From NCBI GenBank assembly GCA_016187395.1, contig JACPJV010000039.1, positions 5,663-69,662 of the forward strand: a DNA stretch of 64,000 nt. Reading direction: 5' to 3'. The position numbers and the translations under genes were made by a program. The notes under the pieces were generated by a model. That model was not told the origin of the DNA, searched no databases, and worked only from the letters and a program-made list of their open reading frames with translations. The DNA is from Candidatus Aenigmatarchaeota archaeon. GTDB taxonomy: Archaea > Aenigmatarchaeota > Aenigmatarchaeia > GW2011-AR5 > JACRAC01. Position 1 is the stretch's first letter. Every line of letters starts with the position of its first letter. Positions 10,212-29,080 of the stretch are shown here, one piece after another.

Positions 10212-13200
10212 ATGGGTCATAGACTTTTGCTTGCATTAGTAGTCTTAGTTATATTCAGCTCTGCTGTTTACGGATATTCAAGAGAGGAAATCAATGTGAC
10301 ATCCTGCAGAGGCGTCACCTGTACTGTTGCGAACTTTAACATCAACACAAGCGCAACAATAGGAGCTTCGCCAGGAAAAGGTGATACAGTTTATACAGGG
10401 TGGTCTAACACCACTTTTCCTTCAGAAGCAACTATCCAGAAGGTCAGATTCAGGTTCAGATATACAGGGCAAAATGGTCTGGACAATTTATGGGAATTTG
10501 ATTTTAGAACAGAGAAATATGTAACTTCTTACTGTACAAACACACTAGTGCAGTGCGACGCAGCCTGCGATGTGTACTACGAAGCTAATCTAACAGAGCC
10601 CGGTTCTGTGTGCGACTGGACAAAATCAAAACTTGATGATCTGAACATATCTGTATTAAATAATGATGCAGGAGGAGGCAAGACAGGCGATGTAACCTTC
10701 ATGGACATGGAGGTGCAGTACGTCGTGGCGCCGAACGTCTCTGATCCTGTGACTGCGGACCTGGACGGAGTTGTCAAGAAAGAATTTCGCAACAGCGAGG
10801 AGGTGAATATCACCGTGAACGTGAGCGACTTCGAGGGTTCCGGCGATATAAGCACGGTTCGAATCACAATCATAGATTCGGCAAATACCGCAAGGGTGAA
10901 TAACGCTTCAATGACTGCAGGCCCTTCCATTGAAAAGGGCTTCATATACAATTTTACATACAACCTGAGCTTTCAGGGGCCTTCAGGCGAATGGAGGGCG
11001 AACATCTATGCCAACGACACAAACGGTTTCAACGGCACGAATTCAACCAGGTTCAACGTCACGGTGGTGCCTTATGTTAATGTGACGTTCATAAGCCCGA
11101 CGCCGGTAAACAACAGCAACATGACAGAGCTGGATATTTTGTTCATAAACACAAGCGCTTTCGGGGAAGTGAACAACATAGACGTATGCCTGCTGGAGTT
11201 TGACAGCGTTAATGAATCTATGACTAAAAACGCCTCAGGCAGAAGCGCCTACTGCGATAAGGCAAAAAGATCGCTTTCATTGGGGCAGCATTCGTACAAG
11301 GTCTACGCAAACGACACGAACAACAACTGGAACGTGACGGAGACAAGGAACATATCTGTAAATCCGCTCCAGTTCATAGCGATGCTGAATATCTCGCAGC
11401 TTCCCAGCCAGATAGGATGGACGTGCCAGTCATGTGTTGCAGGCGGAAAATTCTACGAGAGGCTTGTCAGGGGATTTGATGCGACAAATATCATGAGAGG
11501 TGTGCTTTCTGTGAGCCACAACTTCACGCAGATAAGCATCAACACGAGCGCACTCGCAGCACTTGCCCGTGGAGGAGGAGTAACATCTGCAACAAGCGCT
11601 TCGCACAGCCATTTGCCCGGAAGCGCAAGCACTACACAAACTCAAAGCATTATGCCTATATCAAAGAGCGTTATAGTTGCTAACAGGACGTATGCCAATG
11701 ACCTGATCATCCCTTCAGGCACGCTGCTTTTATTCAATTCGACGTCAGCTGTGCCTTCAGAGAACTGGACGATTGTCAACGGCTGGAATGATTTTCATCT
11801 TATAGGCAATGCAACATTCGGGCAGGAGATAGGAAGCAGGGCGCATAACCACACCCTGGTTGCAAACGGCACTAATACTTCAATAGACGATGCAGGAAGC
11901 GTTATAGTCGTAATCACTTCAGGGTTAGTTGCACTGGATGGCCACGTCCACCCGTTCCCAGAGGATGTTACAAGCACTCCATCTGCCCAAAGCTCGGCAA
12001 ACTTCGTGACTGCGATATTGGCGCAGGCTACATCAAATACGAATATTCCGGAACGCGCATATGCACTGTTTGACGGAACGCCGCCGCAGGGCTGGAAGGT
12101 GCAGAGCAACCCAGACAGCTGGTTCTACAACCGCACTATAATTCCGAACGGAACGTTTGGCGTGACAGGCGGCGATGAGAGCGGGCACAATCACACATCA
12201 CAGATATTGATAACAGGAACGACCACAACGGTCGTGGGAGACATCTCAGCACTATCTGAACCAGCTTCAGATGCAACGCATAAGCATGAGATGAACGTTT
12301 CTTACACAGAGGAAAAAGCCACACCTGCCTCGACAACGGTTATAGTCGCGCAGCGCAACGCAAAGCCGCGGGTCACGCAGCCGCAGTTCAACATCACAAA
12401 CGCAAACTGGTATCTGACTGCGAACACAACGGCCACAGACGCAGACCTTGAACCCCTTGAAGTCTATATCAACTGGACGATAAACGGAATATTCAGGGTG
12501 CAGAACAACTATACAGGCATCCTGAACGGCACGGTTGTGAACGATACGCTAAATCGTCTCAACGCAAGCTACGGCGGCGTGACGTACAAACCCGGCGATA
12601 ATATCACGGTCATGGTCTGGACAGGCGACACGTACGAAAACAGCACAAGCGCGCCAAATAACAGCATCATAGTGGATAATATCCCTCCCGCTATAACATA
12701 TCAATCACCAACGCCTGCGGAAGGCACGAACACAACGGAAAACTGGACAGCAGTCAACGCGACAATAAGCGACAATCTCTACAACACATCTGCTTTTATT
12801 GATTTCAACAGCTCTTTGATTGGCTACTGGTCGTTTGAAAATTTCGATAATTTGAATATATTCGACAATTCTTCATACGGTCTTAACGCATTCTACGCAA
12901 CGCAGGCAAACGCAAGAAACATAACCACAGGCTATTACGGAAACGGATTCCTGATGAACAGGAGCGGTGCATGCACAAGCTGCGGTCTGAATGCGACCAA
13001 TGCCACGCCTTTCTACTTCCAGAATGGATTGACACTCGAAGCATGGGTTATTGTGCATGAGAACACAACGCTTATAAAATATATAGTTGGAAAAAGAACG
13101 GCTTGGGACTTGACATCAGACAGGACTAATGAAATACAATTTTCTATAACAAACCAGACAGCGACAAGAGATCTTTCTTCAAACGCTGGGATAGACGGCG

Positions 13201-16200
13201 ACGGGAAATGGCATCATATAGCTGGAACGTGGAACGGAACGACCATGCGAGTGTATCTTGACGGAAACATAAAAAACAGCGCAGCCTTTGGCGGTTTAAT
13301 CAACTTATCTGAATGGCGTGTTTTTCTGGGCGGAAGAGATGGCTCGAACACTGGGTCAAACCAGACTTCAGACGAGGTAAAAATCTGGAGCCGTGCATTA
13401 AGTGCAGAGGAAATCAACGCAAGCATGAATACAGCAAAAACAAGCGGCAGCGTTTACAGCAACTTCACAGAACTCAGCGACGGAGTGCGCGCTTACCGCG
13501 TCTATGCCATTGACCAGGTCGGCAACCTGAATATCAGCAGCCAGCGCAGAGTCACAACAGACACAACGCCGCCGCAGGGCACGTACGTAAGCCCGACGCC
13601 CACAGACGGGGAAAATTCTACAAATACCACGTACACGTTCAATGCCACGGTTGACGATGCGCTGCTGCCTATAAGCGCAGTTCTGTTTGAGCTTGACGGG
13701 ACCAATTATACAGCCGGCACAAACGGCACAGGGATAAGCATTTATGCCAATTTCACGGCGTCAAGCCTTTCTGTGGACGTGCATTATTACAAGTTCTGGC
13801 TTAATGACACATTAAACAACAAAAACCAGACTCCGAGAAGAAACGTGACCGTGCAGGCTGCCGGGGCTGTGACAGGCCTGCTCATCGCTTCTCTGCTCAA
13901 TACAACGTACAACCTCACGGTACCGCAGAACGAGACGTTCTACATCAATGTGACGGTAGGGTGCCAGGGCGCAGGAAATATAACGTGCGGCACTGTCAAC
14001 GCAACAGCGCGCTACAATTTCACGTCAGCCACGGTCCCGGACACAGCGATTGATGATAAATTCTGGAACCAGACGCTGTACATCGTGAACGTGACGATGC
14101 GGAAGATGAGGAATTTGACTAGGGTGGGGAATTTGACACTTGAGCCGACTGAAAGTCTCTCTGTAGTTCTTATGGATTCTTATGGCAGTTTCTTATACGT
14201 GGCCACTGCTTCATCACCAAGCCATCTGATAAAAATAAATCTTATTGATTTCAAAAGAGCTGGAAATATTACTATTGAAAAACCCGGATTAGGAGAATAT
14301 AGTTTTCGTTCAGGAGTAATAGATACCAACAATGGCTTTCTATATCTAGGATCGCGTAATTCACAATCTCCTTCTGGAGAAATAATCAAGGTAAGACTTT
14401 CTGATCTAAAAGTAGTAGGAAACATTACTTTGAACCCCGGAGAACAAAATTTATCGTCGGCTGTTATAGATACAGAAAATGGTTTTGCGTACTTTGCGGC
14501 AACTGCACCACCAGGTATTATTGTAAAAATAAATCTTTTGAACTTTTCTAGAGTAGGTAATCTTACGCTCAATACCGGAGAGGATCAGATTATGACAGGC
14601 GTTATAGACATACAAAATCAATTTGCATATTTTGGAACTATAAGTTATGACGAGAGCAATACTGGAATCGTAAAGGTTAATCTATCTGATTTTACAAGAA
14701 TTGGAAATACGTCAGCGGCTCCTGGAGCTCCAGGATCATCTGTTATAGATGTCGATGCCGGATTTGCTTATTTTGGAACTGTACGAGGCGGTATTTTAAC
14801 TAACGATGTAATAAGAATAAATCTTTCTGACTTTAAGAGAGTCGGAAATGTTAGTATCGGTATAGGAGAATTGCAGTCAGCCGCTATAGATACAGTGAAT
14901 AAGATAGCATACTTTGCATGGGATGCGAATCCTTTAAATTTGACCAAGATAAACCTTTCAGATTTCACTTTGATTGGAAATGTTGAATTAAATGCAACGA
15001 AAATAGCATCATTAGGGATAAGCGATCCAAAAGCAGCTATTGATGTTTCCACTGGTTTTGCATATTTTGGCGCAGCAAACGATGATGTTACATTGGTAGT
15101 CAAAGTCAAAGTAGATCAAGTCCCGAAGCCGCGCAACGTGCTGGAGAGGGCTGGGAATTTGACGCTGGGCACAGGCGAGGACAACTTTACATATCAAGCA
15201 TCCGTAATTGATTCTGAGAAAGGAGTCGCATATTTCGGTACTGCTACCTCGCCTGCGAAAATAATAAAGGTTAATCTTTCTGACTTTAGGAAGATAGCAA
15301 CTATAACTTTGAATGCAGGCGAAAATAGTCTGCGCTCAGCTGCTATAGACGCCAAAAACGGTTTTGCATATTTTGGCACAGCCACAAATCCAGGTATTGT
15401 CGTCAAAATTAATCTTTCTGATTTTTCTAGGGTTGGAAATGTAACTTTGAATACGAATGAAGCCGATCTCAGATCCGCAGTTATAGATTCCGAGAAGAGA
15501 TTTGCTTATTTTGGCACCTTCACTCCACCGGCAATTATTGTGAAGATTAACCTCTCTGATTTCTCAAGATTAGGGAACTTAACCCTAAATACGGGCGAGG
15601 ATAACCTGACATCAGCTGTCATTGATACTGCAAGTGGTTTTGCTTACTTCGCTACACGGACAAATCCTGGCAAAATAATTAAGATTAACCTAACTGATTT
15701 CACTAGAGTAGGTTCAATTACACTGAATACAGGAGAGCGTACAATGGAATCGGGTGTAATTGATGTAACAAACGGCTTTGCTTATTTCGGTGGACTGTTC
15801 GGGAATGTTGTTAAGATAAATCTCTCAGATTTTACCAGAACAGATGGTATTGTGCTTCCAACAAGTATAGTATCCGGGGCGATTGATACACAAAACAATT
15901 TCATATATTTTGGGTCAGAAGACACTCCGGCTAATATAACAAGACTTAACTTATCAGATTTTGCCGGAAATATCACAATTAATTTAAATTCGAATGAAAA
16001 CTTTTCATATTCCGGATTTATAGATATAGAAAGAGGCTTTGCATATTTCGGTACGGATACTGCACCCGGAAGAATAATCAAAATCAACCTCCGCCAGCGG
16101 AACCCGGTGGATTGCGGCACGCTGTCGCAGGACGAGGGGGCGACGTGCCTGGTGAACTGGCTCGTAAGGGCACCTGGCCCGGTAGGCACGCAGCATTTTG

Positions 16201-16715
16201 TTGATGGGATGGCTAACTCATCGCTGGCAGGAGACAACCAGAGCGCAGATTTCCAGGTGAATATAACGGGAATTACGAAGTCAATCGCACTTGCTTTGTC
16301 GAATGCTCTCTCACGGCAGATACACTGGACAATTGATGTCTTACCTATATTCCAGCAGTTTGCTGATGGAAATAATGGAACAAATTCAACTGATTACAGG
16401 ATAAACGTATCAGCTACAGGCACTACTGTAGATGTCTATATACGCGCAAGCGGACCTCTCGCAACACCCGGAGGAACTGCCCTTATAGGACTTCCGAACG
16501 AAACGTTCAGCTACAACACGACCAATGTAAATGTTCCAAGCGCAAACAACCGTTCTCTAACCACAAGCTTTTCTGACAACAAGATAGGTGACAACCTGAT
16601 CAGTGGCTCTGGAATTTTCCTGAAATTCTTCTTGAACGTCAGCAGCGGTCAGGACGCAGGAACTTATAACAACACCGTCGAAATCAAGGCCGTGGAGGCT
16701 GGGCAGGCGCCTTAG
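10212..16715 (+). CDS. giant surface glycoprotein/adhesin (2167 aa): Ig-like domains, LamG-like lectin domain, 14 propeller-type repeats, C-terminal pilin-like domain
   Basis: Signal peptide and very many N-x-S/T sequons. The LamG/ConA-like block is GYYGNGF...LTLEAWV...GKWHHIAGTWNGTTMRVYLDGN...VFLGGR...DEVKIWSRALS. Long uninterrupted ORF. Confidence 0.9.
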   Translation: MGHRLLLALVVLVIFSSAVYGYSREEINVTSCRGVTCTVANFNINTSATIGASPGKGDTVYTGWSNTTFPSEATIQKVRFRFRYTGQNGLDNLWEFDFRTEKYVTSYCTNTLVQCDAACDVYYEANLTEPGSVCDWTKSKLDDLNISVLNNDAGGGKTGDVTFMDMEVQYVVAPNVSDPVTADLDGVVKKEFRNSEEVNITVNVSDFEGSGDISTVRITIIDSANTARVNNASMTAGPSIEKGFIYNFTYNLSFQGPSGEWRANIYANDTNGFNGTNSTRFNVTVVPYVNVTFISPTPVNNSNMTELDILFINTSAFGEVNNIDVCLLEFDSVNESMTKNASGRSAYCDKAKRSLSLGQHSYKVYANDTNNNWNVTETRNISVNPLQFIAMLNISQLPSQIGWTCQSCVAGGKFYERLVRGFDATNIMRGVLSVSHNFTQISINTSALAALARGGGVTSATSASHSHLPGSASTTQTQSIMPISKSVIVANRTYANDLIIPSGTLLLFNSTSAVPSENWTIVNGWNDFHLIGNATFGQEIGSRAHNHTLVANGTNTSIDDAGSVIVVITSGLVALDGHVHPFPEDVTSTPSAQSSANFVTAILAQATSNTNIPERAYALFDGTPPQGWKVQSNPDSWFYNRTIIPNGTFGVTGGDESGHNHTSQILITGTTTTVVGDISALSEPASDATHKHEMNVSYTEEKATPASTTVIVAQRNAKPRVTQPQFNITNANWYLTANTTATDADLEPLEVYINWTINGIFRVQNNYTGILNGTVVNDTLNRLNASYGGVTYKPGDNITVMVWTGDTYENSTSAPNNSIIVDNIPPAITYQSPTPAEGTNTTENWTAVNATISDNLYNTSAFIDFNSSLIGYWSFENFDNLNIFDNSSYGLNAFYATQANARNITTGYYGNGFLMNRSGACTSCGLNATNATPFYFQNGLTLEAWVIVHENTTLIKYIVGKRTAWDLTSDRTNEIQFSITNQTATRDLSSNAGIDGDGKWHHIAGTWNGTTMRVYLDGNIKNSAAFGGLINLSEWRVFLGGRDGSNTGSNQTSDEVKIWSRALSAEEINASMNTAKTSGSVYSNFTELSDGVRAYRVYAIDQVGNLNISSQRRVTTDTTPPQGTYVSPTPTDGENSTNTTYTFNATVDDALLPISAVLFELDGTNYTAGTNGTGISIYANFTASSLSVDVHYYKFWLNDTLNNKNQTPRRNVTVQAAGAVTGLLIASLLNTTYNLTVPQNETFYINVTVGCQGAGNITCGTVNATARYNFTSATVPDTAIDDKFWNQTLYIVNVTMRKMRNLTRVGNLTLEPTESLSVVLMDSYGSFLYVATASSPSHLIKINLIDFKRAGNITIEKPGLGEYSFRSGVIDTNNGFLYLGSRNSQSPSGEIIKVRLSDLKVVGNITLNPGEQNLSSAVIDTENGFAYFAATAPPGIIVKINLLNFSRVGNLTLNTGEDQIMTGVIDIQNQFAYFGTISYDESNTGIVKVNLSDFTRIGNTSAAPGAPGSSVIDVDAGFAYFGTVRGGILTNDVIRINLSDFKRVGNVSIGIGELQSAAIDTVNKIAYFAWDANPLNLTKINLSDFTLIGNVELNATKIASLGISDPKAAIDVSTGFAYFGAANDDVTLVVKVKVDQVPKPRNVLERAGNLTLGTGEDNFTYQASVIDSEKGVAYFGTATSPAKIIKVNLSDFRKIATITLNAGENSLRSAAIDAKNGFAYFGTATNPGIVVKINLSDFSRVGNVTLNTNEADLRSAVIDSEKRFAYFGTFTPPAIIVKINLSDFSRLGNLTLNTGEDNLTSAVIDTASGFAYFATRTNPGKIIKINLTDFTRVGSITLNTGERTMESGVIDVTNGFAYFGGLFGNVVKINLSDFTRTDGIVLPTSIVSGAIDTQNNFIYFGSEDTPANITRLNLSDFAGNITINLNSNENFSYSGFIDIERGFAYFGTDTAPGRIIKINLRQRNPVDCGTLSQDEGATCLVNWLVRAPGPVGTQHFVDGMANSSLAGDNQSADFQVNITGITKSIALALSNALSRQIHWTIDVLPIFQQFADGNNGTNSTDYRINVSATGTTVDVYIRASGPLATPGGTALIGLPNETFSYNTTNVNVPSANNRSLTTSFSDNKIGDNLISGSGIFLKFFLNVSSGQDAGTYNNTVEIKAVEAGQAP
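14106..16092 (+). repeat. 14 tandem about-42-47-aa coding repeats arranged 7+7
   Basis: The recurrent unit is (I/V)NLSDF-R(V/I/L)GN-TLN-GE--L-SAVID---GFAYFGT---PG-I(V/I)KI. A non-repeat linker (VKVDQVPKPRNVLE) lies near 15110-15160. Confidence 0.8.
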
Positions 16716-16720
16716 GAAAC
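16700..16720. repeat. 21-bp direct repeat, left copy (TGGGCAGGCGCCTTAGGAAAC)
   Basis: Exact match to 20455-20475. Covers the last codons and stop of the giant gene, and the stop of the convergent protease gene. Confidence 0.9.
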
Positions 16721-18082
16721 TTGCTGAAGGATATTCGGATCTATAAAGAGTCCAATCGGTCCAATTTTGTCACAGAGATAACAAGGGGGCGGCAGAAATG
16801 CCACATATATTGTTACTGAATCTTCATCATGCCTCAATTGAGTAATGCTGATTCTGTTTATACGGTCGTAGAAAAGTGAACCGTCTGAGAGCGCCTCGTC
16901 GTAGGCGTATTTCTTTGTTTTCGGCGTGGCATCGATGAGCTTCGTCTTGCTTGCAGAAATGCCGTCCCAGACATGAATAAGAGTGCCTTCTGTGATTGCG
17001 TCACTCAAAAGGTCATCAAAGCCGATAGGCCGCCTATACTCTAGAAAATAATGCTCATTAGTATCGGGCTTTGCTATCTTTAACACCTGCGTTCCGAAAG
17101 CTTGCGCTTCCAAAGGAAAATAAATTGTATAAATGCCACTTTTTGCTATTTCCTGCACGCTTTCTGGGCTTATCCACCCGGCTGCAATCTTGTGCGGGGC
17201 ATTCAGGTGATGGTAGCGGTTTCCCATCACGTCGTAAGAATCACCTTGCTCTGAAAAAATGCAATTAGCATAGTCGTCTATAGCACGAAAGCCGCAATCC
17301 AGGCTTCCTGAATGGTGCAGGCTGAATGTGTGGCCGATTTCATGCGCATACAGCTGTTCCCAATTTTCGCCGTTAATCCAGATTTTTCTTGGCGGGTCCC
17401 CGCCAAGCTGCCCCCTTCCTGCCCAATTGCAAACCTCTGACGAAGGGAAGAAATATATCACTCTGTCATAATTATTGACATCATAATTATCCTTTGCCGC
17501 CAGTTCTTCGGCAGCCTGTGACCACAAGCCATAATCACAAGTGACATCATTGGTGTTGTCTATAGTGTACCATCCTATAACATCACCAGAAAGCGAAACT
17601 TTGCCGAAGGAATTTTCCTGAAAGAAATTGTTCGGCGAAAATGTACCCTCAAACAATGTATAATTTATCTGTTCTGCGAGGTAGGGCTTACGCTGGTCGT
17701 TGATGAAGTTAAACATGATTACAAGAACACGAAGATTGTTATCTGCTGGATCTGGCTCTGGCAAGCGAATTACAACAAGATTCTCACCATCCACTGAAAT
17801 CTGCTGCCCGCTAATTTTTCCTCTTATTCTGATAATAGAATCAGGAATTAGCAAAGGATCTCCCCTGAATACTAATCTGTAAAAATCACCTTCTCCAGAC
17901 TCTAAATAGTATGCGTTTTCGCTATGCTGGCTAATGAAGTCATCGCTGTGTATTATGATAACTCTGCCCTCGACTTCTGCTGTGTCATATTCTTGCAGCG
18001 CAAAGACCGTTTGATTTGGCACAGCAATCAGAGCTGCTATCAGCAAAAGCATGAATGCCACGCTTGCATATTTCCATTTCAT
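16712..18082 (-). CDS. secreted zinc metallopeptidase (HExxH...H)
   Basis: N-terminal signal or anchor (MKWKYASVAFMLLLIAALIAVP). Active-site motif YAHEIGHTFSLHHSG. ATG start at 18082. Confidence 0.75.
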   Translation of the reverse strand: MKWKYASVAFMLLLIAALIAVPNQTVFALQEYDTAEVEGRVIIIHSDDFISQHSENAYYLESGEGDFYRLVFRGDPLLIPDSIIRIRGKISGQQISVDGENLVVIRLPEPDPADNNLRVLVIMFNFINDQRKPYLAEQINYTLFEGTFSPNNFFQENSFGKVSLSGDVIGWYTIDNTNDVTCDYGLWSQAAEELAAKDNYDVNNYDRVIYFFPSSEVCNWAGRGQLGGDPPRKIWINGENWEQLYAHEIGHTFSLHHSGSLDCGFRAIDDYANCIFSEQGDSYDVMGNRYHHLNAPHKIAAGWISPESVQEIAKSGIYTIYFPLEAQAFGTQVLKIAKPDTNEHYFLEYRRPIGFDDLLSDAITEGTLIHVWDGISASKTKLIDATPKTKKYAYDEALSDGSLFYDRINRISITQLRHDEDSVTIYVAFLPPPCYLCDKIGPIGLFIDPNILQQVS

Positions 18083-18140
18083 GTTTATCAAAAAGGTATA
18101 ATAGGCAATACCTTAAATAACTTCCGCAAATCCATTATAT

Positions 18141-18914
18141 ATGAATTCAGAAGAGATGTCCAAGCTTCAGATGAGCCGAAGCCAGGGAGCGGCAATGATT
18201 CTTTCGCGACAACTAGCAAGCCAGATTGCTCGCGATATTTCGCGGATTGCCGATGACTACAGGCGTGGCGCAACCGGAGAAGAGATAGTAAAAAAACACC
18301 GCATAGATATAAGATATTGCAAGGGATCGGAAAGCATCGCGCTGTCTTCTGTCTATTTCGCGCTTGCAGAGCTTATGCCGGAAGGCGAGAGGCACAGGCT
18401 TGCATACGAACATACGGTTGATGCAGCCATGCCTGTTATCAGAAAACAGCAAGACGACGGCACAGGCATATACGGATTTACAAGCAAGCAGCATTCTGAG
18501 GCAGGAAGAAAAGGCGGCTCAAAATCAGGAAGAATAGTATACGAGCAAAAGCTCGGCATACACGGTCTTTCTCATGAGGAGAGATCTAAGATAGGAAAAA
18601 AAGCTGGGAAAATCGGAGGGAGTTCTGCGCGAAGAATGAGAAAGGGCATTCATTCTCTGACGCCTGAACAAAGAAGAGAAATTTCCAGGAAAGCTGTCGC
18701 TGCCCGCGGTTATGCGCCATTTTCCGATGAGGAAAAGACTTATTTTCTGGAGTTATGTGCGGATCCGGAATTTCAGTACGGGTCAGGACCAAACAAGGGA
18801 AGGCCTGAACATCCCCGGATAGCAAAAGGACTTGAGCAAAGGTTCGGTATAGACCGGTCAGGCTCTGACCTGGCTTCTATGAAGTGCAGACTTGAAAGGA
18901 GGAAAGGTGCTTAG
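18141..18914 (+). CDS. hypothetical DNA-binding-like protein with three NUMOD3-like repeats
   Basis: Repeats GIYGFTSKQHSEAGRKGGSKSG, GIHGLSHEERSKIGKKAGKIGG and GIHSLTPEQRREISRKAVAARG resemble the NUMOD3 motif of homing-endonuclease DNA-binding modules. No nuclease motif was seen. Confidence 0.45.
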   Translation: MNSEEMSKLQMSRSQGAAMILSRQLASQIARDISRIADDYRRGATGEEIVKKHRIDIRYCKGSESIALSSVYFALAELMPEGERHRLAYEHTVDAAMPVIRKQQDDGTGIYGFTSKQHSEAGRKGGSKSGRIVYEQKLGIHGLSHEERSKIGKKAGKIGGSSARRMRKGIHSLTPEQRREISRKAVAARGYAPFSDEEKTYFLELCADPEFQYGSGPNKGRPEHPRIAKGLEQRFGIDRSGSDLASMKCRLERRKGA

Positions 18915-18916
18915 AA

Positions 18917-18983
18917 ATGTACAACAAACAGCCTGCACTTTACTCCATCCGCGGCATCAACTGCAGCGGGGAGGGGCTGTGAA
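18917..18983 (+). repeat. junction repeat J (diverged copy)
   Basis: Reads in frame as ...QPALYSIRGINCSGEGL*, compared with ...ELVLYSIRGRNRNGEGR* in other copies. Ends directly against the stop of the ATPase gene at 18984. Confidence 0.7.
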
Positions 18984-20402
18984 TTATCGCTTCATGGCTT
19001 TCTCGATGTCTTTCAGGTCAAAGCAATATGCTTTCTTCCCTTCGACTTTTGTTATTCTCTTTCTGAATGACTTTGCAAAAACAGCATAGATTTCTTTTCT
19101 CCTGTCGTTGTGCCATTTCACGAGCTTGGCTTTCTCAATGAGGTTTGCGGCAATTTTTCCCGCATCTACGTTATCCTTCCACTTGCATTCGCAGAACAAG
19201 ATTTTCATCTTGTTTTCATCAAGCGCTACTATGTCTATTTCCCTGTCCTTGTGCCACCATCTGCCGATTTTTTCAAAGCCGAAGCCTGCCAGAACAGCCT
19301 TTTCCCTTATCAGATGCTCGACCAGCCTTTCGAACATAAACCCGGAATAATTCTGGAAATCCTTTTTGATTGCAGACAGGATTTCCCCCTCCCTGTACGC
19401 CTCCAGTTCTATCTTGTTCGGATAAACGTACCTGAACCAGAAATTGAAATAAGGATCGACAAGAAAATACAACCTCCTTCGGAATTTCGGCGAAGCAGTG
19501 ACAGGAATTTCCTCTCTTATTATTCCAATGTTTTTGAGCGTTTCGAGATACTTTGACACCATGCCTTTGTCCAATCCGGTATAATTGCATATTTCTGCTG
19601 ACGTTGTTTTTCCAAGCGCAATAGCCTTGAAAATGAGAACATAATTTTTGGGTTCTCTAAATTCATCTTTCAGCAGGAATTCCGCTTCCCTGTAAAGATA
19701 GCAGCCTTTTCTTATGAAATTTTTCCTTATATTCTGCCAGAATCCCAGCTTTGGATCGAATTTCAGGATGTATTCCGGTATCCCGCCGATAACGAACCAT
19801 ATTCTTGCCAGTTCTTCCATGCTGCAATGCGGGAAAAATTTTCTCATGCGAGCAAATAACAGCGGCTGAAGCTCCCATTGACCTGTTCTTCTGCCGTACA
19901 GGGGACTCCCATAACCGAGAACCTTTTCTTCCATCACGCTGACCGACGAGCCTGAAAGTATCAGCATAACGTTTTTGTTCTTCAGTATAAGCTCCCATAT
20001 TCTCTGAAATATCGAAGGGATTGATGGGTTGCTGTGTATCAGAAAAGGAAATTCGTCAATGGCAACAATTACTTTTGTTTTCCTTGCCAGTTCTGCAAAT
20101 GCTATATTTTTTGCCAAAGAGTCGAATAGAAAAAACCAGTCTCCGAATTCAGCTCTTGAAAAATTCTCATCATCGATAAGCTCGGACGCTTTTCTCTTGA
20201 AATTAGCTAAGTTTTCCTTATCGCCTTCTGAAGAGGCAAGAAAGTAAAGCCCTTTCCTTCCCCTGAGGAACTCCAGAATAAGCTCCGTTTTTCCCACGCG
20301 CCTTCGGCCATAAATCACAACAAGTTCTGACTTGCCGGATGAATGCATTCGTTTTAGAAATGCAAGCTCCTTCTCTCTGTTCACAAATTTTGGTTGAGTC
20401 AT
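18984..20402 (-). CDS. archaeal AAA+ ATPase with C-terminal DUF234/PD-(D/E)xK-like domain
   Basis: Walker A GRRRVGKT and Walker B IVAIDEF. The C-terminal IGRWWHKDREIDIVALD...ILFCECKW forms a D...ExK nuclease-like motif. Confidence 0.85.
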   Translation of the reverse strand: MTQPKFVNREKELAFLKRMHSSGKSELVVIYGRRRVGKTELILEFLRGRKGLYFLASSEGDKENLANFKRKASELIDDENFSRAEFGDWFFLFDSLAKNIAFAELARKTKVIVAIDEFPFLIHSNPSIPSIFQRIWELILKNKNVMLILSGSSVSVMEEKVLGYGSPLYGRRTGQWELQPLLFARMRKFFPHCSMEELARIWFVIGGIPEYILKFDPKLGFWQNIRKNFIRKGCYLYREAEFLLKDEFREPKNYVLIFKAIALGKTTSAEICNYTGLDKGMVSKYLETLKNIGIIREEIPVTASPKFRRRLYFLVDPYFNFWFRYVYPNKIELEAYREGEILSAIKKDFQNYSGFMFERLVEHLIREKAVLAGFGFEKIGRWWHKDREIDIVALDENKMKILFCECKWKDNVDAGKIAANLIEKAKLVKWHNDRRKEIYAVFAKSFRKRITKVEGKKAYCFDLKDIEKAMKR

Positions 20403-20425
20403 AAGTAGTATACTTTACTATCAAC

Positions 20426-20433
20426 TATTTAAA
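20426..20433 (-). promoter_or_regulatory. TATA box (TTTAAATA on minus strand)
   Basis: Lies 24 nt upstream of the ATG at 20402. The same CTTTAAATA box with the same spacing is found upstream of the 27351 and 25691 genes. Confidence 0.5.
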
Positions 20434-20437
20434 GCTT

Positions 20438-20452
20438 GGGAGGGGCGGTGAG
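20438..20452 (+). repeat. junction repeat J (terminal 15 nt only, GGGAGGGGCGGTGAG)
   Basis: Identical to the ends of the J copies at 25021-25035 and 28966-28980. Confidence 0.6.
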
Positions 20453-20454
20453 AT

Positions 20455-20475
20455 TGGGCAGGCGCCTTAGGAAAC
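20455..20475. repeat. 21-bp direct repeat, right copy
   Basis: Exact match to 16700-16720. Confidence 0.9.
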
Positions 20476-20516
20476 CTTTAAAACTTATCGGCTTCTAACT
20501 AATTAGGTTCGATTTC

Positions 20517-22139
20517 ATGACTCGCAAATTCCGCCACCTGGTGGGAACTGCTGCCTTGGGACTTGGCGCTCTTTTGTTCAGCACGGGCGCTGCTTCTGCA
20601 GAGGAACTGAAACAGGAAACAGGCGTACCACAAAAAACTGATGGCAGAGAATTCGAGACAAAGGACAACCACTATGATTTTGGCTGCTTCAACGGGAATT
20701 ACAGGGCAGATCCTGGCGAGCTGCGAAGAGGCTGCAATCATGTTATAAATCCCGGAAAGCTGGTGCGTGTAGAGCCTTCTCTGCCTCCTTTCAGCGAGAT
20801 TTTTCAGCACGAATGGACTTGCACGGCGACTCCAAACGACGGCAGGGTTTCCGGGCCCTCTGCTTCAGATACGCTATCGCCGGATGGATTCATTGACGCC
20901 CGTGTTGACGGCGAAAACGTTTTATTTAAAATAGTTGATCCTGACGGCATATGGAGGTATGGCGCGGATTATGGCGGCGATGGATCCATGGATAAGATGG
21001 AATGGGCAGCTGGCGCGAATGTCGTAGAAGATTCATTTATTTTAACCCCGACCTTTTCCGGAAAACATCCAGTGAAGATAGTTTATTGGGACATGGGATA
21101 CAGATCTAAAGAAAAAAATCTTGTTGTTCAGGCAGGAAACGGCGAAGATGCTGATTTGGCATCATTCTTTTCCTGGATGGAAAGCCACGGATACTCTCCA
21201 GAGATTACCCATGTTTACAGAAAGCATCTGGACCATCCTTTAGTCAGAAAACAACTGTACAGAGATTTTGACATCCGCGAAGGAGGAGGAAATGAAACCG
21301 TGCAATCCTACAGACAGGGCGGGACATTCACGATGGTGCTTCACGACGTATTTCCTACTGATGATGGAGCTACGTCAACTTCCATGGAGGGCGATATTCC
21401 GGCATTGGAGAAAATAGCAGAGAGGATTTTTGGAAGAGATTTCTCCTTTGAATACAAGCCTGAGGACATATCATATTCAGATCTTATTGGGCAAGTCCTT
21501 GAAGACTGCGTTGTACTGGATGGAAATAGGGTAAGGGAAACCTTGAATGCGATGGTAGATGATAGAACTAAAGGCCATGTATTTCATCTTGCAGCTGAAA
21601 CCCTTGAATGGGGCATTCCGGTATGCAGCTTTACAGGCTCTTCACCAGCTTTTAGCACAGAGGAACTGGATGACGGAGAGGATTATGTTGGGGGACTTTA
21701 TTTGCATGAATGGGGGCACGACATTGAACTGCACCATCATCTGGTGAACCAAGCATATCCCTTTACAAACAGCTTCTACGGCACGGATGATATAATGGTT
21801 CATGATTATATCGGCTATGGAAACAGGGAAACAGGCAGGCTGGGAGATCCTTTGACGTTATACGCGCTCGAAACAGCAGACGGGTATTCTCCGGAAACGA
21901 CAGCCAGATACAATGAAGCCATGGAAAACAGCTGGATGCTGGAAGATGCTTACTATGGTATAACGAATCGCCCTCCAACAATGCCAAAGGTTTCTATAAA
22001 CGCTGATAATAGCAGCCAATGCATAACCTGCAATGCTTTCGGCAGCTTTGACAGAAATGGAGATCCAATAACTTACACATATACGTGGTCTATTGACGGT
22101 CAGCAGATGCCTTATACAGATAATCGAATTTGCTGGTGA
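20517..22139 (+). CDS. secreted HExxH metallopeptidase-like protein with C-terminal PKD-like segment
   Basis: Signal peptide (GTAALGLGALLFSTGAASA), the motif LYLHEWGHDIELHHH, and a C-terminal FDRNGDPITYTYTWSIDG pattern. Confidence 0.65.
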   Translation: MTRKFRHLVGTAALGLGALLFSTGAASAEELKQETGVPQKTDGREFETKDNHYDFGCFNGNYRADPGELRRGCNHVINPGKLVRVEPSLPPFSEIFQHEWTCTATPNDGRVSGPSASDTLSPDGFIDARVDGENVLFKIVDPDGIWRYGADYGGDGSMDKMEWAAGANVVEDSFILTPTFSGKHPVKIVYWDMGYRSKEKNLVVQAGNGEDADLASFFSWMESHGYSPEITHVYRKHLDHPLVRKQLYRDFDIREGGGNETVQSYRQGGTFTMVLHDVFPTDDGATSTSMEGDIPALEKIAERIFGRDFSFEYKPEDISYSDLIGQVLEDCVVLDGNRVRETLNAMVDDRTKGHVFHLAAETLEWGIPVCSFTGSSPAFSTEELDDGEDYVGGLYLHEWGHDIELHHHLVNQAYPFTNSFYGTDDIMVHDYIGYGNRETGRLGDPLTLYALETADGYSPETTARYNEAMENSWMLEDAYYGITNRPPTMPKVSINADNSSQCITCNAFGSFDRNGDPITYTYTWSIDGQQMPYTDNRICW

Positions 22140-23243: not shown

Positions 23244-23307
23244 GCCGCCGACGGCAACGAACTTGTGCTTTATTCTGTGAGAGGCAGAAACTGCAACGGG
23301 GAGGGGC
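23244..23307 (+). repeat. junction repeat J (3' 64 nt)
   Basis: Reads AADGNELVLYSVRGRNCNGEGP*. Differs from other copies mainly by synonymous changes. Confidence 0.8.
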
Positions 23308-23317
23308 CTTAGGCAAA

Positions 23318-24616
23318 TCATTTTGCTGCCAGCAGCCACTTCCAGAGGGGGATGAATGTGATATTGTAACTTCTGCCTTTATGCTTCACTTTTCTGCCGC
23401 CTTCTTTCTCTTCTGTTATGACAAGCCCTTCCCTCAATTTGCATTTTTTCATGGCTTCTAACAGACCTTTGACCTCGCGCTCTTCATTCTCCTTTATCTG
23501 GTAGGAAACCTGTATAGCCGTAACCTTTCGCCCCTCCTTTACCAGAAAGTCGCATTCCTGCCTGCCTTTGAAATAATAGATTTCTTTCCCTCTGTTGAGC
23601 AATGAAAGAAAAACTAGGTTTTCATACAGTTTCCCTATGTTGTCCAAAAATCTGAAGCTTACTGTATTTATGAGGCCGGAATCAATCCCATAGACCTTTC
23701 TCGGATTCACTTCCTGCTCTTTCAGGGAATATGAAAATTTCGGGACGAAAAACACCAGGCAGGCATCTGTCATATACAGCGAGAACCTTTCTACACTGTC
23801 CAGACTCAAGCCCGCAAACCTGGCAATTCTTCTGTACGAGATGGGAGATGAAAAATTTGTCAGGTAGTATTTGGCCAACGCCTTGAGTTTTCCCGTGTTT
23901 CTTATTCTGCGGCGCTCTGCGATATCTCTTCCCACTATATCGTCAAAATACCTTTCAAGTATTTCCTTTTTTTCGCCCTTTAATGCAACGAGAGGAAAAC
24001 CGCCGTATTCCATGTATTCTCTCAGAAGCTGCTTAATCTGAATTTTTCTGGAAAGCAAATCAAGCTTGCCTCCCAGCCGCAGTCCCTTAAAACGAAGGAA
24101 TTCCCTGAAATCCAGCGGGTATATTCTCATATCTACCCACCTTCCTGTGAGCAGGGTTCCGAATTCTTTGCTGAGCAATTTGGAAGTGGAACCAGAAATT
24201 AAAATACGCGCTTCCTTCTTTTCATGCAAAGCCCTCACAAACTTTTCCCATTTCGGGATACTTTGTATCTCATCCAGCAAGATGTAGGGAATGCCTTTCG
24301 GCTTCACTATTTCCATATAAGACTCATAAATCTGCTGCAGAAATTCCAAAGAGAGCATATCTGCAAATTTTGGTTCTTCGAAGTTTACATACAAAAAAGA
24401 TGTTCTGCCTTCACCTCTGCCAATATGCCGTTTTATGAACTGTTTCATTAAAGTGGATTTCCCGCTCCTTCGCACACCTGTTATTGCAATAACCTGGTCT
24501 GTGCGCACGAGTCTGTCCAGCTTGCTCAGGTATTCTTCTCTGGATATTCCAGTTTCATGGTCATCTTCCCAGAAATTCCAGCCGCTTAATACCTCTACAA
24601 TTTTTTCATTTTCCAT
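23318..24616 (-). CDS. AAA+ ATPase, AAA_14/DUF4143 type (COG1373-like)
   Basis: Walker A GVRRSGKST and Walker B ILLDEIQ. C-terminal QECDFLV...AIQVSY block. A TATA (TTATATA) lies 22 nt upstream of the ATG. Confidence 0.85.
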   Translation of the reverse strand: MENEKIVEVLSGWNFWEDDHETGISREEYLSKLDRLVRTDQVIAITGVRRSGKSTLMKQFIKRHIGRGEGRTSFLYVNFEEPKFADMLSLEFLQQIYESYMEIVKPKGIPYILLDEIQSIPKWEKFVRALHEKKEARILISGSTSKLLSKEFGTLLTGRWVDMRIYPLDFREFLRFKGLRLGGKLDLLSRKIQIKQLLREYMEYGGFPLVALKGEKKEILERYFDDIVGRDIAERRRIRNTGKLKALAKYYLTNFSSPISYRRIARFAGLSLDSVERFSLYMTDACLVFFVPKFSYSLKEQEVNPRKVYGIDSGLINTVSFRFLDNIGKLYENLVFLSLLNRGKEIYYFKGRQECDFLVKEGRKVTAIQVSYQIKENEEREVKGLLEAMKKCKLREGLVITEEKEGGRKVKHKGRSYNITFIPLWKWLLAAK

Positions 24617-24673
24617 AGGAAAATAAGTTTATCAAAGTATATAAGCTTATCGGTCATTTTCATGCCTTTTTGA

Positions 24674-25034
24674 CCGACATATTTAATAGGATGCCCAGTC
24701 CAATGCCTCGAAGTCTGCCCGTGCGATGTTCTGCCCGGAGAGATGCAGAATCTTCGCGCCAGAAGAAACGGCCGCAATGTCGAATTGTACTGGCCTACCG
24801 AGCCGCTTTCACAGGAATATGGCATAGACAGGGAGGTGAACGCCACACGCGCATCTGCTGACCAGAGCTTCAACCCGGCACGCGTAAACACGACAAGCGG
24901 CTTACAGTATACGGATGCCGGCGTTGCCGGCGACGGCAACGAGCTTGTGCTTTATTCTGTTAGGGGCAGAAAGGCGAATGGACGTTTGCCGCAGCAAACG
25001 TCAGTCTGCACTTCGCAACGGGGAGGGGCGGTGA
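24674..25034 (+). pseudogene. 3' fragment of an Fn3-like surface-protein gene (longest J copy), disrupted by hairpin element E
   Basis: Open from the stop at 24671. Encodes ...LPGEMQNLRARRNGRNVELYWPTEPLSQEYGIDREVNATRASADQSFNPARVNTTSGLQYTDAGVAGDGNELVLYSVRG (Fn3-like pattern). A 45-nt insert then shifts the frame before the conserved NGEGR* end. Confidence 0.6.
24970..25014. repeat. hairpin element E (GGCGAATGGAC...GTCAGTCTGC)
   Basis: 45 nt replace the GAACT found at the same place in intact J copies. It forms a long imperfect hairpin around GTTTGCCGCAGCAAAC. Confidence 0.75.
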
Positions 25035-25442
25035 CTACTTCGGTTCTGAGAGTTCTTTGGTTGCATAAACTTTGATAATATTTTGCTCTTTCAGCTTCTT
25101 GTCATTTGACCATATTGCGCAGCGGAGTTTCAATGCGAGCGCGAAGTAATGGACATCATCGGGATCAGGACATACAGATTCAGCTTGTTCAAAATATTCT
25201 ATGAATTCGCTGGAAGGGACTGATGTTATACTCGCTCTTATCATGAGCTCGGTAAAAAGATCCCTAACCTTTTCTTCTGAAAGACCCGTTTTTTCAGTGA
25301 TGACGTCCAGATTGTTCATAAGTTCCTCAAAAAGAAATTCAGGGATGTAGAAAGTCCAGCTGCTGCTCAAAATGAGATGGCGCGTATGGCTGTCTCTTAT
25401 CAATGCTGCGAAAAGTACGTTCGCATCGAGAACAAGATCCAT
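25035..25442 (-). CDS. vapC: PIN-domain toxin
   Basis: The MDLVLDANVLFAAL N-terminus and conserved acidic residues. Paralog of 60709-61152. Confidence 0.85.
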   Translation of the reverse strand: MDLVLDANVLFAALIRDSHTRHLILSSSWTFYIPEFLFEELMNNLDVITEKTGLSEEKVRDLFTELMIRASITSVPSSEFIEYFEQAESVCPDPDDVHYFALALKLRCAIWSNDKKLKEQNIIKVYATKELSEPK

Positions 25443-25691
25443 TTATCTCATCTCTTTGTATCTTTTTGCCAGCGCCTTATTAACCTTTCTGCCGAGTTCA
25501 ATTGCGTCTTCTTCGGTCAGTTTGCTCTCTGCGAGAAGCCTATCCATCTTCTTTAAGAGAATGACCCTCTCCCGGATTGCCTGCCTAGCTACTTCTGACC
25601 AGTTTAGCTCAGGATGTCTGTCCATTTCTTCTTTCAGCTCTTCCGGTACAGACAGAGTTATGCTTACCACAAAATCACCTATCACGTTCAT
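25443..25691 (-). CDS. vapB: antitoxin partner of PIN toxin
   Basis: 82 aa, abuts the PIN gene. Shares SKLTEEDA-ELGRKVN---A-(R/K)Y with 60436-60699. TATA TTTAAATA lies 29 nt upstream. Confidence 0.75.
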   Translation of the reverse strand: MNVIGDFVVSITLSVPEELKEEMDRHPELNWSEVARQAIRERVILLKKMDRLLAESKLTEEDAIELGRKVNKALAKRYKEMR

Positions 25692-25742
25692 TGTGTTTAA
25701 TATGTTTAATACGTGAACATATTTAAAGGTTGCGTTTCAACT

Positions 25743-25859
25743 CAGTTAGAGGCAGGGAGGCGAATGGACTGCGAGTGAGTAGACACTTTCTGCAGAAAGT
25801 GTCATTTGCCTCCGCTGCAGGAATGTCAGTCTGCATTCTGCAGCGGAGAGGGGCGGTAG
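25743..25859 (+). repeat. junction repeat J (short) carrying nested hairpin element E
   Basis: CAGTTAGAGGCAG, then an 89-nt E insert (25756-25844), then GGAGAGGGGCGGTAG. Confidence 0.7.
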
Positions 25860-25865
25860 GCTGAT

Positions 25866-25964
25866 TATATAGCAAACCAACTTGCTATATGGCGTTTATT
25901 AAGTTGGTTTGCTATATGGGAAAGCACAAATGACATGTTCCGTTTCATTTGTGGTTTCACTATA
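25866..25964. repeat. family F1 hairpin modules (two)
   Basis: TATATAGCAAACCAAC...GTTGGTTTGCTATAT and GCACAAATGA...TCATTTGTGGTTTCACTATA. The last heptamer contains the stop codon of the ATPase gene. Confidence 0.8.
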
Positions 25965-27351
25965 GCTTCATCGCCTTCTCCAGATCTTTCAGGTCAAAGC
26001 AATATGCTTTCTTCCCTTCGACTTTTGTTATTCTCTTTCTGAATGACTTTGCAAAAACAGCATAGATTTCTTTTCTCCTGTCGTTGTGCCATTTTACATA
26101 TTTGGCTTTCTCGCTCAGCATGGAAGCAATTTTTTCAGCGTTTACACCGTCCTTCCACTTGCATTCGCAGAACAAGATTTTCATTTTGTTTTCATCAAGC
26201 GCTACTATGTCTATTTCCCTGTCCTTGTGCCACCATCTGCCAATTTTTGTGGTTTCCATGATATTGAGCCTGGGTACCAATGACGCGACGAATGATTCGA
26301 ATTTTCTGCCTACATATTCCCCGCTCCTTTTCTTTATTTCATCCAGAACGGCATCAACATCCCCTCTTTCCAGCTGTTGTTTATTGAGGTATACAAATCT
26401 GAGCCAGAAATCAAAAAAATTATCCTTTAAAGCATATGAACCTCTCGCCTTTAGCTTGCTTTTATAGCTCTCGGTGATTATTTTTCTTTTTTCCAGAATC
26501 CCGAGTTTTTCCAGAATGAAAAGATATTTTGAAAGAAGGCTTTTGTCCAATTGCGTTTTTGAATGAATTTCGCCGGATGTCGCAGCCCCACCGGCGATGG
26601 CGGAAATTATTGACATATAATTCGACGGGTCTCTCAGCTCTTCTCTCAGAAGAATTTCCACCTCCTCGTATAAAAATTCGCCTTTGCTTAGAATCCTTTC
26701 CCTTACATTTTTCCACAGGCCGATTTTCGGAGAAAACTTTACCAGGTAACCTGGAATCATATCAAGAAAGGAATATACGAAAACCAGTTCTTCCATGGCG
26801 TATCCGGGGAAAAATTCCTTCAGATAGGTCACGTCCAGCTTATCGACCTGCCACTGGCCGGTTCTCCTGCCGTACAGAGGGCTTCTGTAGCTCAGGGCAT
26901 ATTTTTCCATCATACTGACTGACGAGCCTGACAGTATCATCATGAGTTTCGTGCCTTTGAAAGCCGAATCCCATTTGTCCTGCAGAACTGATATTATTTC
27001 CGGTGATCTCTCAATCAGGAAAGGAAACTCGTCAAAAATCAGCACAAGCCTCGATGCCGCCTTTTCAGCGAGGTAATCGAATATGCCATCCCAGCTCAGC
27101 AAAGGGGAGGTAAGAAGCCTCGCGTCCCCGAAAAATTCTACCAGCAGGTTATTAAACCTTCGCAGCGTGTCAGATTTTGATTCTAAACGTCCCAGAAAAT
27201 ACAGCATATTCTTGCCTTCAGAAAAATGCATAAGCAACTCTGTCTTCCCTATCCTCCGCCGCCCGTAAAGTATGACAAGTTCCGCCTTTCCGGAGCGGTA
27301 TTTCCTATTCAGGAAATTTAGTTCGTCGTCTCTATCAAAAAAATGCATCAT
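25960..27351 (-). CDS. archaeal AAA+ ATPase with C-terminal DUF234/PD-(D/E)xK-like domain
   Basis: Walker A GRRRIGKT. Start moved to ATG 27351 (MMHFFDRDDE) by alignment with the paralog at 18984-20402 and by TATA spacing. The C-terminal about 95 aa are nearly identical to that paralog. Confidence 0.85.
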   Translation of the reverse strand: MMHFFDRDDELNFLNRKYRSGKAELVILYGRRRIGKTELLMHFSEGKNMLYFLGRLESKSDTLRRFNNLLVEFFGDARLLTSPLLSWDGIFDYLAEKAASRLVLIFDEFPFLIERSPEIISVLQDKWDSAFKGTKLMMILSGSSVSMMEKYALSYRSPLYGRRTGQWQVDKLDVTYLKEFFPGYAMEELVFVYSFLDMIPGYLVKFSPKIGLWKNVRERILSKGEFLYEEVEILLREELRDPSNYMSIISAIAGGAATSGEIHSKTQLDKSLLSKYLFILEKLGILEKRKIITESYKSKLKARGSYALKDNFFDFWLRFVYLNKQQLERGDVDAVLDEIKKRSGEYVGRKFESFVASLVPRLNIMETTKIGRWWHKDREIDIVALDENKMKILFCECKWKDGVNAEKIASMLSEKAKYVKWHNDRRKEIYAVFAKSFRKRITKVEGKKAYCFDLKDLEKAMKL

Positions 27352-27373
27352 GAGTATATACTTATACTTCAAC

Positions 27374-27381
27374 TATTTAAA
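27374..27381 (-). promoter_or_regulatory. TATA box (TTTAAATA on minus strand)
   Basis: Lies 23 nt upstream of ATG 27351. The surrounding sequence TCAACTATTTAAAG is shared with 20421-20434. Confidence 0.5.
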
Positions 27382-27395
27382 GTTTTGCTTGGAGG

Positions 27396-27540
27396 CGCAT
27401 CCGCAGACAGAAGATTCAACCCGGCGCGCGCAAACACGACAAGCGGGCTGAGCTATACTGACGCCGGCGTCGCCGCCGACGGCAACGAGCTTGTGCTTTA
27501 TTCTGTTAGGGGCAGGAACTGCAACGGGGAAGGGAATTAG
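27396..27540 (+). repeat. junction repeat J (145 nt)
   Basis: Reads ASADRRFNPARANTTSGLSYTDAGVAADGNELVLYSVRGRNCNGEGN*. Its stop overlaps the stop of the convergent ATPase gene. Confidence 0.85.
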
Positions 27541-28784: not shown

Positions 28785-28845
28785 GGTTTATCATAGTGCA
28801 CAAAAGTATATAAATTTATGCATTATGAATCTTATGCATCAGCAG

Positions 28846-28979
28846 ACAGGAGCTTCAACCCGGCACGTGTAAATACGACAAGCGGACTTACTTATACTGA
28901 TGCTGTTGTCGTAGCCGACGGCAACGAGCTTGTGCTTTATTCTATCCGCGGCAGGAACCGCAACGGGGAGGGGCGGTGA
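28846..28979 (+). repeat. junction repeat J (134 nt)
   Basis: Reads ASADRSFNPARVNTTSGLTYTDAVVVADGNELVLYSIRGRNRNGEGR*. Confidence 0.85.
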
Positions 28980-28983
28980 GGAT

Positions 28984-29080
28984 TATAGTCATGCAAGAAA
29001 GAAATTAGTATTATATTTTCTTGCTGACTATATGTGAACCAAATAGTATAATATCCTGATTATTTATTTGGTTCACTATA
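28984..29080. repeat. family F1 hairpin modules (two)
   Basis: TATAGTCATGCAAGAAA...TTTCTTGCTGACTATA, followed by TGTGAACCAAATA...TATTTGGTTCACTATA. Confidence 0.8.

Follow-up and report, generated by a model that had tools for sequence, protein, structure and literature searches.

How did a composite block of accessory genes come to lie between two identical 21-bp sequences, one of which forms the very end of a giant adhesin gene? The question is raised by a 64,000-nucleotide stretch of DNA (the window; positions 5663-69662 of contig JACPJV010000039.1, here C31, GenBank assembly GCA_016187395.1) from a Candidatus Aenigmatarchaeota archaeon, a tiny-genome DPANN archaeon found in groundwater. 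The genomes of DPANN archaea are tiny, and these archaea rely on contact with a host cell; how they acquire and shuffle accessory genes is poorly known, and the block bears on that. The inserted segment (16721-20454, ~3.75 kb) is composite and directly follows the gene for a 2167-aa adhesin (10212-16715, plus strand, from its open reading frame (ORF) and translation). On balance, the segment is probably a non-autonomous composite accessory block, inserted by recombination at the extreme 3' end of the adhesin gene. An initial annotation, made from the sequence alone, had described an insertion bounded by an attachment (att) site or a target duplication; this is supported by an empty site in groundwater run X1, and by run X4, in which the right-hand composite recurs: a truncated adhesin end of another type (J), the dinucleotide AT and the repeat core. 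Because the X4 contig holds this composite in another context, an att-like core borne by the element is favoured, on sequence grounds, over a target duplication made de novo.

The assembly comprises 981,745 bp in 42 contigs and is 79.6% complete, with ~20% of the genome missing. It was complemented by groundwater data from four metagenome runs (X1-X4), used as Logan contigs (k=31) with a depth of 2-8 only. For the junction search, the four runs were aligned to positions 20200-20800 at 85% likeness, which returned two informative contigs.

The repeat, TGGGCAGGCGCCTTAGGAAAC, was located by a scan of the window and is exact on the plus strand at 16700-16720 and 20455-20475. No third copy was found in the window even when three mismatches were allowed, no match is expected by chance (100 shuffles), and the 21-mer occurs twice in the whole assembly. 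The exact direct repeats of the initial annotation are thereby confirmed, and the sequence is not a generic genomic repeat. Beyond the 21-mer the flanks are unrelated (identities 10/30 left and 6/30 right): identity between the copies extends 5 nt past the adhesin stop and then breaks off sharply on both sides. A search for the G-rich core elsewhere in the genome gave one identical 15-mer on contig C27, which falls within an unrelated ORF, in a different reading frame, and was set aside as a chance match. The 21-mer includes the palindrome AGGCGCCT and the near-palindrome CCTTAGG.

The left, attL-like copy (plus strand) reads (GC)T GGG CAG GCG CCT TAG GAAAC and comprises the last four codons of the adhesin gene, its stop at 16713-16715 and 5 nt beyond. 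It had been credited with the last five codons and the stop; the stop stands, but the codons are four in full (GQAP) plus one base of a fifth. On the minus strand, the same copy supplies the TAA and the two preceding codons of a convergent protease gene (16712-18091), a stop that the initial annotation had missed. The adhesin has YVTN-like repeats ('SAVID..GFAYFGT') and a native pilin-like ('A-type') C-terminal domain, which ends in ...NTVEIKAVEAGQAP-stop and aligns to the very end with two paralogs (30692-31390 and 32133-32798); the ends compared are ...FLNVSSGQDAGTYNNTVEIKAVEAGQAP-stop for the adhesin and ...WLNVSGAQAAGDYNNTVDFRAVSTGDACGS-stop for the small pilin-like paralogs. Because the alignment with the two pilin-like paralogs reaches the last residues, the left copy is by this comparison the native end of the adhesin gene. 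The right, attR-like copy (plus strand) repeats the adhesin end as an orphan, outside any coding context, and sits between a truncated J terminus plus AT upstream and the CTTTAAAA promoter of the next gene downstream. Independent contigs from the groundwater runs cross both junctions unchanged (the left in X1 and X3, the right in X1 and X2), so the structure is not an artefact of assembly.

The empty site, proposed in the initial annotation as a test, was found in X1 in a single short contig (record 4, 187 nt) with a depth of 2.9, against 7.87 for the main strain. It reads ...AATACTGTGAATATCAAGGGTGTGGAGACG/GGGCAGGCGCCTTAG-A-GAAA-CTTTAAAACCTATCGG... and runs on into the beginning of the downstream gene. 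Its right part matches 20456-20533 with 7 substitutions and 2 indels (~90% identity over 58-78 nt). Upstream it contains 109 more bases, ending in AATACTGTGAATATCAAGGGTGTGGAGACG, which together with the core encode NTVNIKGVETGQAP-stop as compared with the NTVEIKAVEAGQAP-stop of the present strain. Read in frame, the last 30 upstream nucleotides give NTVNIKGVET + GQAP-stop vs NTVEIKAVEA + GQAP-stop; a likeness of 21/30 to these 30 nt is reached at only two of 1.96 million genome positions, one of them exactly the adhesin end. The adhesin part of the contig is too diverged to match the left copy at 80% likeness. As read from this contig, a relative carries the adhesin end joined directly to the promoter and start of the downstream gene, which is the empty site. 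To the question whether relatives always carry the 3.75 kb, the answer is no: the only relative seen lacks the segment. Independent evidence for a second strain in X1 comes from a variant contig at 30086-30243, described below.

The second informative contig (X4 record 12, 200 nt, depth 3.6) contains the exact 33 nt of 20438-20470, GGGAGGGGCGGTGAG-AT-TGGGCAGGCGCCTTAG. It has a longer J on its left (...LYSIRSKNCN-GEGR-stop), and unrelated DNA right after the TAG, the opposite strand of which ends an ORF 9 nt away. The composite of J end, AT and core thus exists in a second context, and the DNA switches exactly at the right edge of the core. Because record 12 holds the composite with different flanks, the core appears to travel attached to the J end.

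The J repeats themselves are 5'-truncated versions of one coding sequence, between 15 and ~345 nt long and each ending exactly at the stop codon. In the whole assembly they are confined to contig C31, and they are absent from 70 genomes of the order and from two JGI metagenome scans. Their origin is indicated by an ENA contig of 532 bp (L008) recovered in an exhaustive HMMER search, which encodes a 144-aa product with 'SAVID..GLAYFGT' repeats followed by ...LELYW...YTDAGAVGDGNGLVSYRIRGRNCNGEGP-stop, a J-type end. Because L008 joins adhesin repeats to such an end, J is by homology the natural FN3-like end of a second type within the same adhesin family, and a true adhesin 3' end. Three long J copies show pairwise synonymous divergences (dS) of 0.55-0.81 with ratios of nonsynonymous to synonymous divergence (dN/dS) of 0.12-0.15; since these values indicate purifying selection, the sequence comparison has the copies diverging as working gene ends in different lineages, not by decay in place. 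The adhesin terminus itself is J-like: it is identical to the end of the J copy at 23244 at 13/15 positions, and when 859 ORF ends are scored with a J-terminus matrix it comes 4th. The initial annotation had ascribed to the segment the same site preference as that of the cassette array, which this likeness supports in part only.

Under the reading that we prefer, the recombination core would consist of 16-21 bp, namely the last four codons of the adhesin gene, its stop and 5 nt beyond. The incoming DNA would have brought its own copy of the core right after a relic J terminus (...GGGAGGGGCGGTGAG-AT-TGGGCAGGCGCCTTAG...), with attP corresponding to J end, AT, core and cargo end, and attB to the adhesin end; attB-like and attP-like sequences are now defined. 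Recombination between the core of the element and that of the gene would keep the adhesin intact, leave one core copy at each end (attL and attR), and displace the former neighbour, an orphan HExxH gene, 3.75 kb downstream. Because the block encodes no recombinase, the recombination step would take place in trans, by a tyrosine integrase, an enzyme common in relatives, or by host homologous recombination on the 16-21 nt of homology. Both are possible, as 17 of 31 relatives have PF00589 tyrosine recombinases (one to three each) and 20% of the genome is missing. We infer the direction of the event (insertion here vs precise loss in the relative) and the enzyme, as well as a circular intermediate. 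Events of this kind would also have built the whole array at 16.7-30.2 kb, in which displaced J ends of the second, FN3-ended adhesin type lie between units with ATPases, toxin-antitoxin pairs and a protease.

Extended to the array, this leads to a more tentative proposal, for which we see a real but minor chance: a gene-capture system of DPANN archaea, free of an integrase or served by one in trans. Its core would be the last ~15 nt of the adhesin gene (G-rich codons and the stop); each cassette would carry a spare adhesin end and insert at the stop with the adhesin left intact, and older ends would be pushed downstream, giving rise to integron-like arrays of defence, toxin-antitoxin, ATPase and secreted-enzyme genes that are exchanged between strains. 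Should the mechanism prove general, a cassette system distinct from integrons would use the 3' ends of surface genes or conserved genes as its landing pads. In a bolder version, the multi-copy DUF234/DUF4143 ATPase-nuclease genes may themselves be the mobilising enzymes.

Several observations weigh against recombination of an att-bounded block. No integrase, resolvase or TnpB was detected in the segment, the window or the assembled genome: none of the ORFs in the segment or the window gave a recombinase domain in Pfam profile searches, and PF00589, PF00239 and PF07282 are absent from the 80%-complete assembly, for which the Cas1 casposase model was not searched genome-wide. The tetranucleotide signature of the segment is ordinary (28th percentile), and no foreign base composition was seen. 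The empty site is represented by one 187-nt contig of depth 2.9, of which only the last 30 of the 109 upstream bases are readable, and the source of which could be a paralogous locus within the 20% of the genome that is unassembled. For the main strain, the empty join would connect the 16699 or 16720 side to 20476, and a circle or tandem junction would read ...GGTGAGAT/21-mer/TTGCTGAAGG...; in the four runs, with contigs at a depth of 2-8 only, neither a main-strain empty join nor a circle junction was present. Finally, the two metagenome scans and the 70 genomes of the order yielded no further relatives.

The alternative that survives best, although we consider it unlikely, is a C-terminal displacement by allele replacement in the manner of Rhs and contact-dependent growth inhibition (CDI) systems. 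The adhesin 3' part of a related strain, together with its downstream genes (protease to ATPase), would have undergone homologous recombination inside the adhesin gene, and an illegitimate join would have placed the far end 16 nt before the resident stop; in that case the right 21-mer would be only a stump of the older allele without site function. The selective constraint on the J copies and the L008 product agree with this, as both present the J copies as stumps of functional adhesin ends from different lineages, and so do the longest stump (24689-25034), which starts where the repeats give way to the C-terminal module, and a J-to-cargo junction that is conserved between paralogous units. 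The empty site fits equally well. Random illegitimate joins would, however, not be expected to leave nine stumps that all keep the exact stop and all fall within the last 350 nt of a 6.5-kb gene. Nor does the alternative sit well with the identical junction GGTGAG-AT-TGGGCAGG in the X4 contig, where different DNA follows downstream, or with an identity that continues 5 nt beyond the stop and then ends sharply on both sides.

Distinctly less probable is a de novo target-site duplication through a transposase-like or staggered-cut insertion, for which one candidate agent would be the PD-(D/E)XK-containing DUF234 ATPase at the right end of the block (ATPase #1; DUF234 has been assigned to the PD-(D/E)XK superfamily, PMC3424549). 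ATPase #1 is bracketed by an imperfect 14-nt repeat, GGGAGGGGC(T/G)GTGA, and a 58% identical ATPase gene on an ENA contig (L010) lies between two copies of a direct repeat that is exact over 45 nt (96% over 50 nt) and duplicates a promoter together with the initial 10 nt of the next gene. Against it stand inverted repeats at the ends of the segment that do not rise above chance (score 9 vs 7.7 +/- 1.4 in shuffles) and the lack of a transposase, while 21 bp is long for such a duplication. The core is moreover already attached to the J end in the X4 context, which points to a core borne by the element, and the other loci of ATPase homologs that were examined showed no clear repeat at their flanks, that of L018 being low-complexity and G/T-rich. 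A rule that DUF234 ATPase genes carry flanking target duplications is thus not established, with one clear case (L010/L011) and one of low complexity (L018) among ~8 loci. In L010, the ATPase of which is labelled Woesearchaeota by NCBI, the repeat copies (3819-3868 and 5528-5577) include a divergent promoter; in the NCBI copy of the locus (L011) the second copy of the repeat is partly deleted. The L010 locus itself is possibly a single-gene insertion with a long duplication, as far as its repeats suggest.

Outside these two alternatives, a DNA transposon was rejected for want of terminal inverted repeats and a transposase, and a diversity-generating retroelement as the source of the J copies was rejected by eye, as the differences are mostly synonymous and not confined to adenines. 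Chance, faulty assembly or a generic repeat of the genome as the origin of the 21-mer has practically nothing left to it: short dispersed hairpin repeats are abundant in this genome, but the 21-mer has an expectation of zero, two genomic copies and k=31 contigs from several runs across both junctions.

Among known systems, the att-bounded block that we prefer resembles first the integrated elements of archaea. In Thaumarchaeota, these target the 3'-distal parts of protein genes with att sites of a median 17 bp; empty sites have been used for their verification, and a site may be re-used in tandem (Krupovic et al., 2019; PMC6563490). The block shares with them a short direct repeat that includes the gene end, an intact target gene, an empty site in a relative and a tandem array. 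Those elements are typed by an integrase or casposase, whereas block and assembled genome lack an integrase; the block is also only 3.75 kb long, composite, and furnished with relic ends of another adhesin type. Its setting, a 13-kb stack behind the giant adhesin gene of a DPANN archaeon, differs from that of documented archaeal elements as well. By this comparison, integration at the 3' ends of protein genes is already known in archaea, and it is the small, composite, integrase-less form with relic adhesin ends that differs. With regard to the features of att-bounded islands, a direct repeat with an intact target 3' end and an unoccupied site in a relative are present; an encoded integrase was not found.

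The cis-mobilizable elements (CIMEs) of Streptococcus are integrase-less, are mobilized in cis and accumulate beside integrative and conjugative elements (ICEs), a process termed accretion-mobilization. As att-bounded, non-autonomous DNA that is arranged in tandem at a gene 3' end and served by an integrase in trans, CIMEs are akin to the block. CIMEs are, however, bacterial, with a known partner ICE and integrase, whereas no partner element or enzyme has been identified for the block.

The array also recalls integron cassette arrays, including those of archaeal integrons (Ghaly et al., 2022; bioRxiv 10.1101/2022.02.06.479319), in its units of mostly one gene or one operon, its toxin-antitoxin and accessory genes and its recurring junctions. 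Unlike integrons, it has no intI, its units bring promoters of their own and occur in either orientation, and its junctions are coding remnants without attC-type hairpins: shuffled sequences fold as well as the 145-nt J copies do (z +1.1 to -0.3). An integron was therefore rejected, given that J is unstructured as single-stranded DNA, that intI is missing and that Rfam returned nothing. A cassette-like row is found on a JGI metagenome contig (L009:2574-8301), where a DUF234 ATPase, HEPN plus nucleotidyltransferase, HicAB and AbiEii are split into units by five copies of a 34-nt junction repeat (CTGAAC..GTTTCT) and two of a 51-nt repeat, neither of which folds into hairpins at the junctions.

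With the orphan modules of rhs, cdiA and type VI secretion system (T6SS) effectors, the locus shares its layout: behind a giant surface-protein gene lie copies of the gene's 3' end that are truncated on their 5' side, each with downstream genes. The stumps of rhs, cdiA and T6SS loci encode variable toxin tips along with immunity genes, whereas here they are conserved FN3-like or pilin-like ends, and the cargo (ATPases, a protease, PIN toxin-antitoxin and nucleotidyltransferase modules) is unrelated to the toxin/immunity pairs of Rhs and CDI.

The cargo of the block begins on its left with the minus-strand gene at 16712-18091, predicted to encode a secreted M11/gametolysin-like HExxH metalloprotease (Pfam PF05548, E 1.1e-6). 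This assignment and an N-terminal hydrophobic leader bear out the secreted metalloprotease of the initial annotation. Identity to the best homologs is 32-38%. The protein has a complete catalytic domain and lacks the additional N- and C-terminal domains found in its homologs. Truncation of the protease at the junction was considered and rejected, since its catalytic domain is whole and the extra domains vary among homologs. It is followed on the plus strand by a gene for a 257-aa repeat protein (18141-18914), which had been labelled NUMOD3-like; we find no support for this label, as Pfam (to E=10), PHROGs and NCBIfam gave no relevant family match. Its distribution is sporadic (6/371 genomes of the phylum).

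The J fragment and the DUF234-type ATPase that had been described next in the segment were both recovered. The fragment (18917-18982, plus strand) encodes (M)YNKQPALYSIRGINCSGEGL-stop, is a 5'-truncated 3' end of a J-type adhesin and marks an internal unit boundary. ATPase #1 (18984-20402, minus strand) is a DUF234/ATPase_2 AAA+ ATPase with a winged helix-turn-helix domain according to Pfam. It is 60-65% identical to proteins labelled Bathyarchaeia, Woesearchaeota, Nanoarchaeota and Methanosarcinales, and 52% identical to the DUF234 paralog 7 kb away in the same genome. The neighbourhoods of its homologs contain MazE, PIN, HicAB, AbiEii and nucleotidyltransferase-HEPN genes and are thus islands rich in toxin-antitoxin systems. 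Because the ATPase is closest to proteins of other phyla, its homologs lie in such islands and the 257-aa protein is sporadic, the cargo is, to judge from these comparisons, of a horizontally moving kind. The block closes with the truncated J terminus (20438-20452, plus strand; GGGAGGGGCGGTGAG, ..GEGR-stop), placed by the initial annotation 2 nt before the right repeat and found there, with AT in between. This terminus and the end of the J fragment at 18917 form the imperfect 14-nt direct repeat around the ATPase unit mentioned above.

The original downstream neighbour of the adhesin gene (20476-22139, plus strand) starts with the TATA-like CTTTAAAA promoter, followed by an ORF with its ATG at 20517. 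The translation (20517-22139) gives an orphan secreted HExxH protein of 540 aa with the motif HEWGHDIELHH, for which no homologs were found among 5.8 billion protein clusters or in 41 relative genomes. From this motif and its position it appears to be an orphan putative metalloprotease, encoded directly behind the adhesin gene in the ancestral arrangement.

Beyond this gene, the rest of the array (23244-30230, plus strand) consists of accessory units separated by J copies at 23244-23312, 24689-25034, 25743-25859, 27397-27540, 28836-28979 and 30138-30230, all on the plus strand. The units encode AAA_14/DUF4143 ATPases, a PIN toxin-antitoxin pair, the second DUF234 ATPase, and a nucleotidyltransferase with a putative HEPN partner. 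In the second strain of X1 (depth 4.7), the variant contig spans 30086-30243 with single-nucleotide differences at 30086, 30090, 30092 and 30243, and 30128-30208, which is most of the J copy at 30138 plus a hairpin, is replaced by 31 unrelated bases. Because of this replacement, the junctions of the array can be said to vary between co-occurring strains.

Some smaller observations concern the same junctions. Convergent stops overlap at 16709-16716 (adhesin and protease) and at 27535-27541 (the J copy at 27397 and an AAA_14 ATPase), and at both sites the TAG of the plus strand and the TAA of the minus strand share the tetranucleotide TTAG. Between the end of the J copy at 25743 and the stop of the second DUF234 ATPase lie ~100 nt (25860-25964) that contain an inverted repeat, TATAGCAAACCAACTT...TTTCACTATA; once this insert is disregarded, the junction between J and ATPase agrees with the one at ATPase #1, and related copies occur on contig C35 and elsewhere on C31. 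The 3' ends of the two DUF234 paralogs (19009-19270 vs 25985-26246) share exact runs of 110, 35 and 56 nt despite the protein identity of 52%, a pattern that suggests recent recombination or gene conversion inside the array. In three J copies, the hairpin is a copy of a GCGAATGGAC...GTCAGTTTG element present at ~20 dispersed sites in the genome. Its copies are at 24985-25012, 25762-25836 and 30158-30200 of the window and at ~17 other sites (e.g. C29:7865, C29:20500 and window 6946); they follow the consensus G(C/T)GAATGGAC-stem-loop-GTCAGT(T/C)TG, and their stem sequences co-vary between copies.

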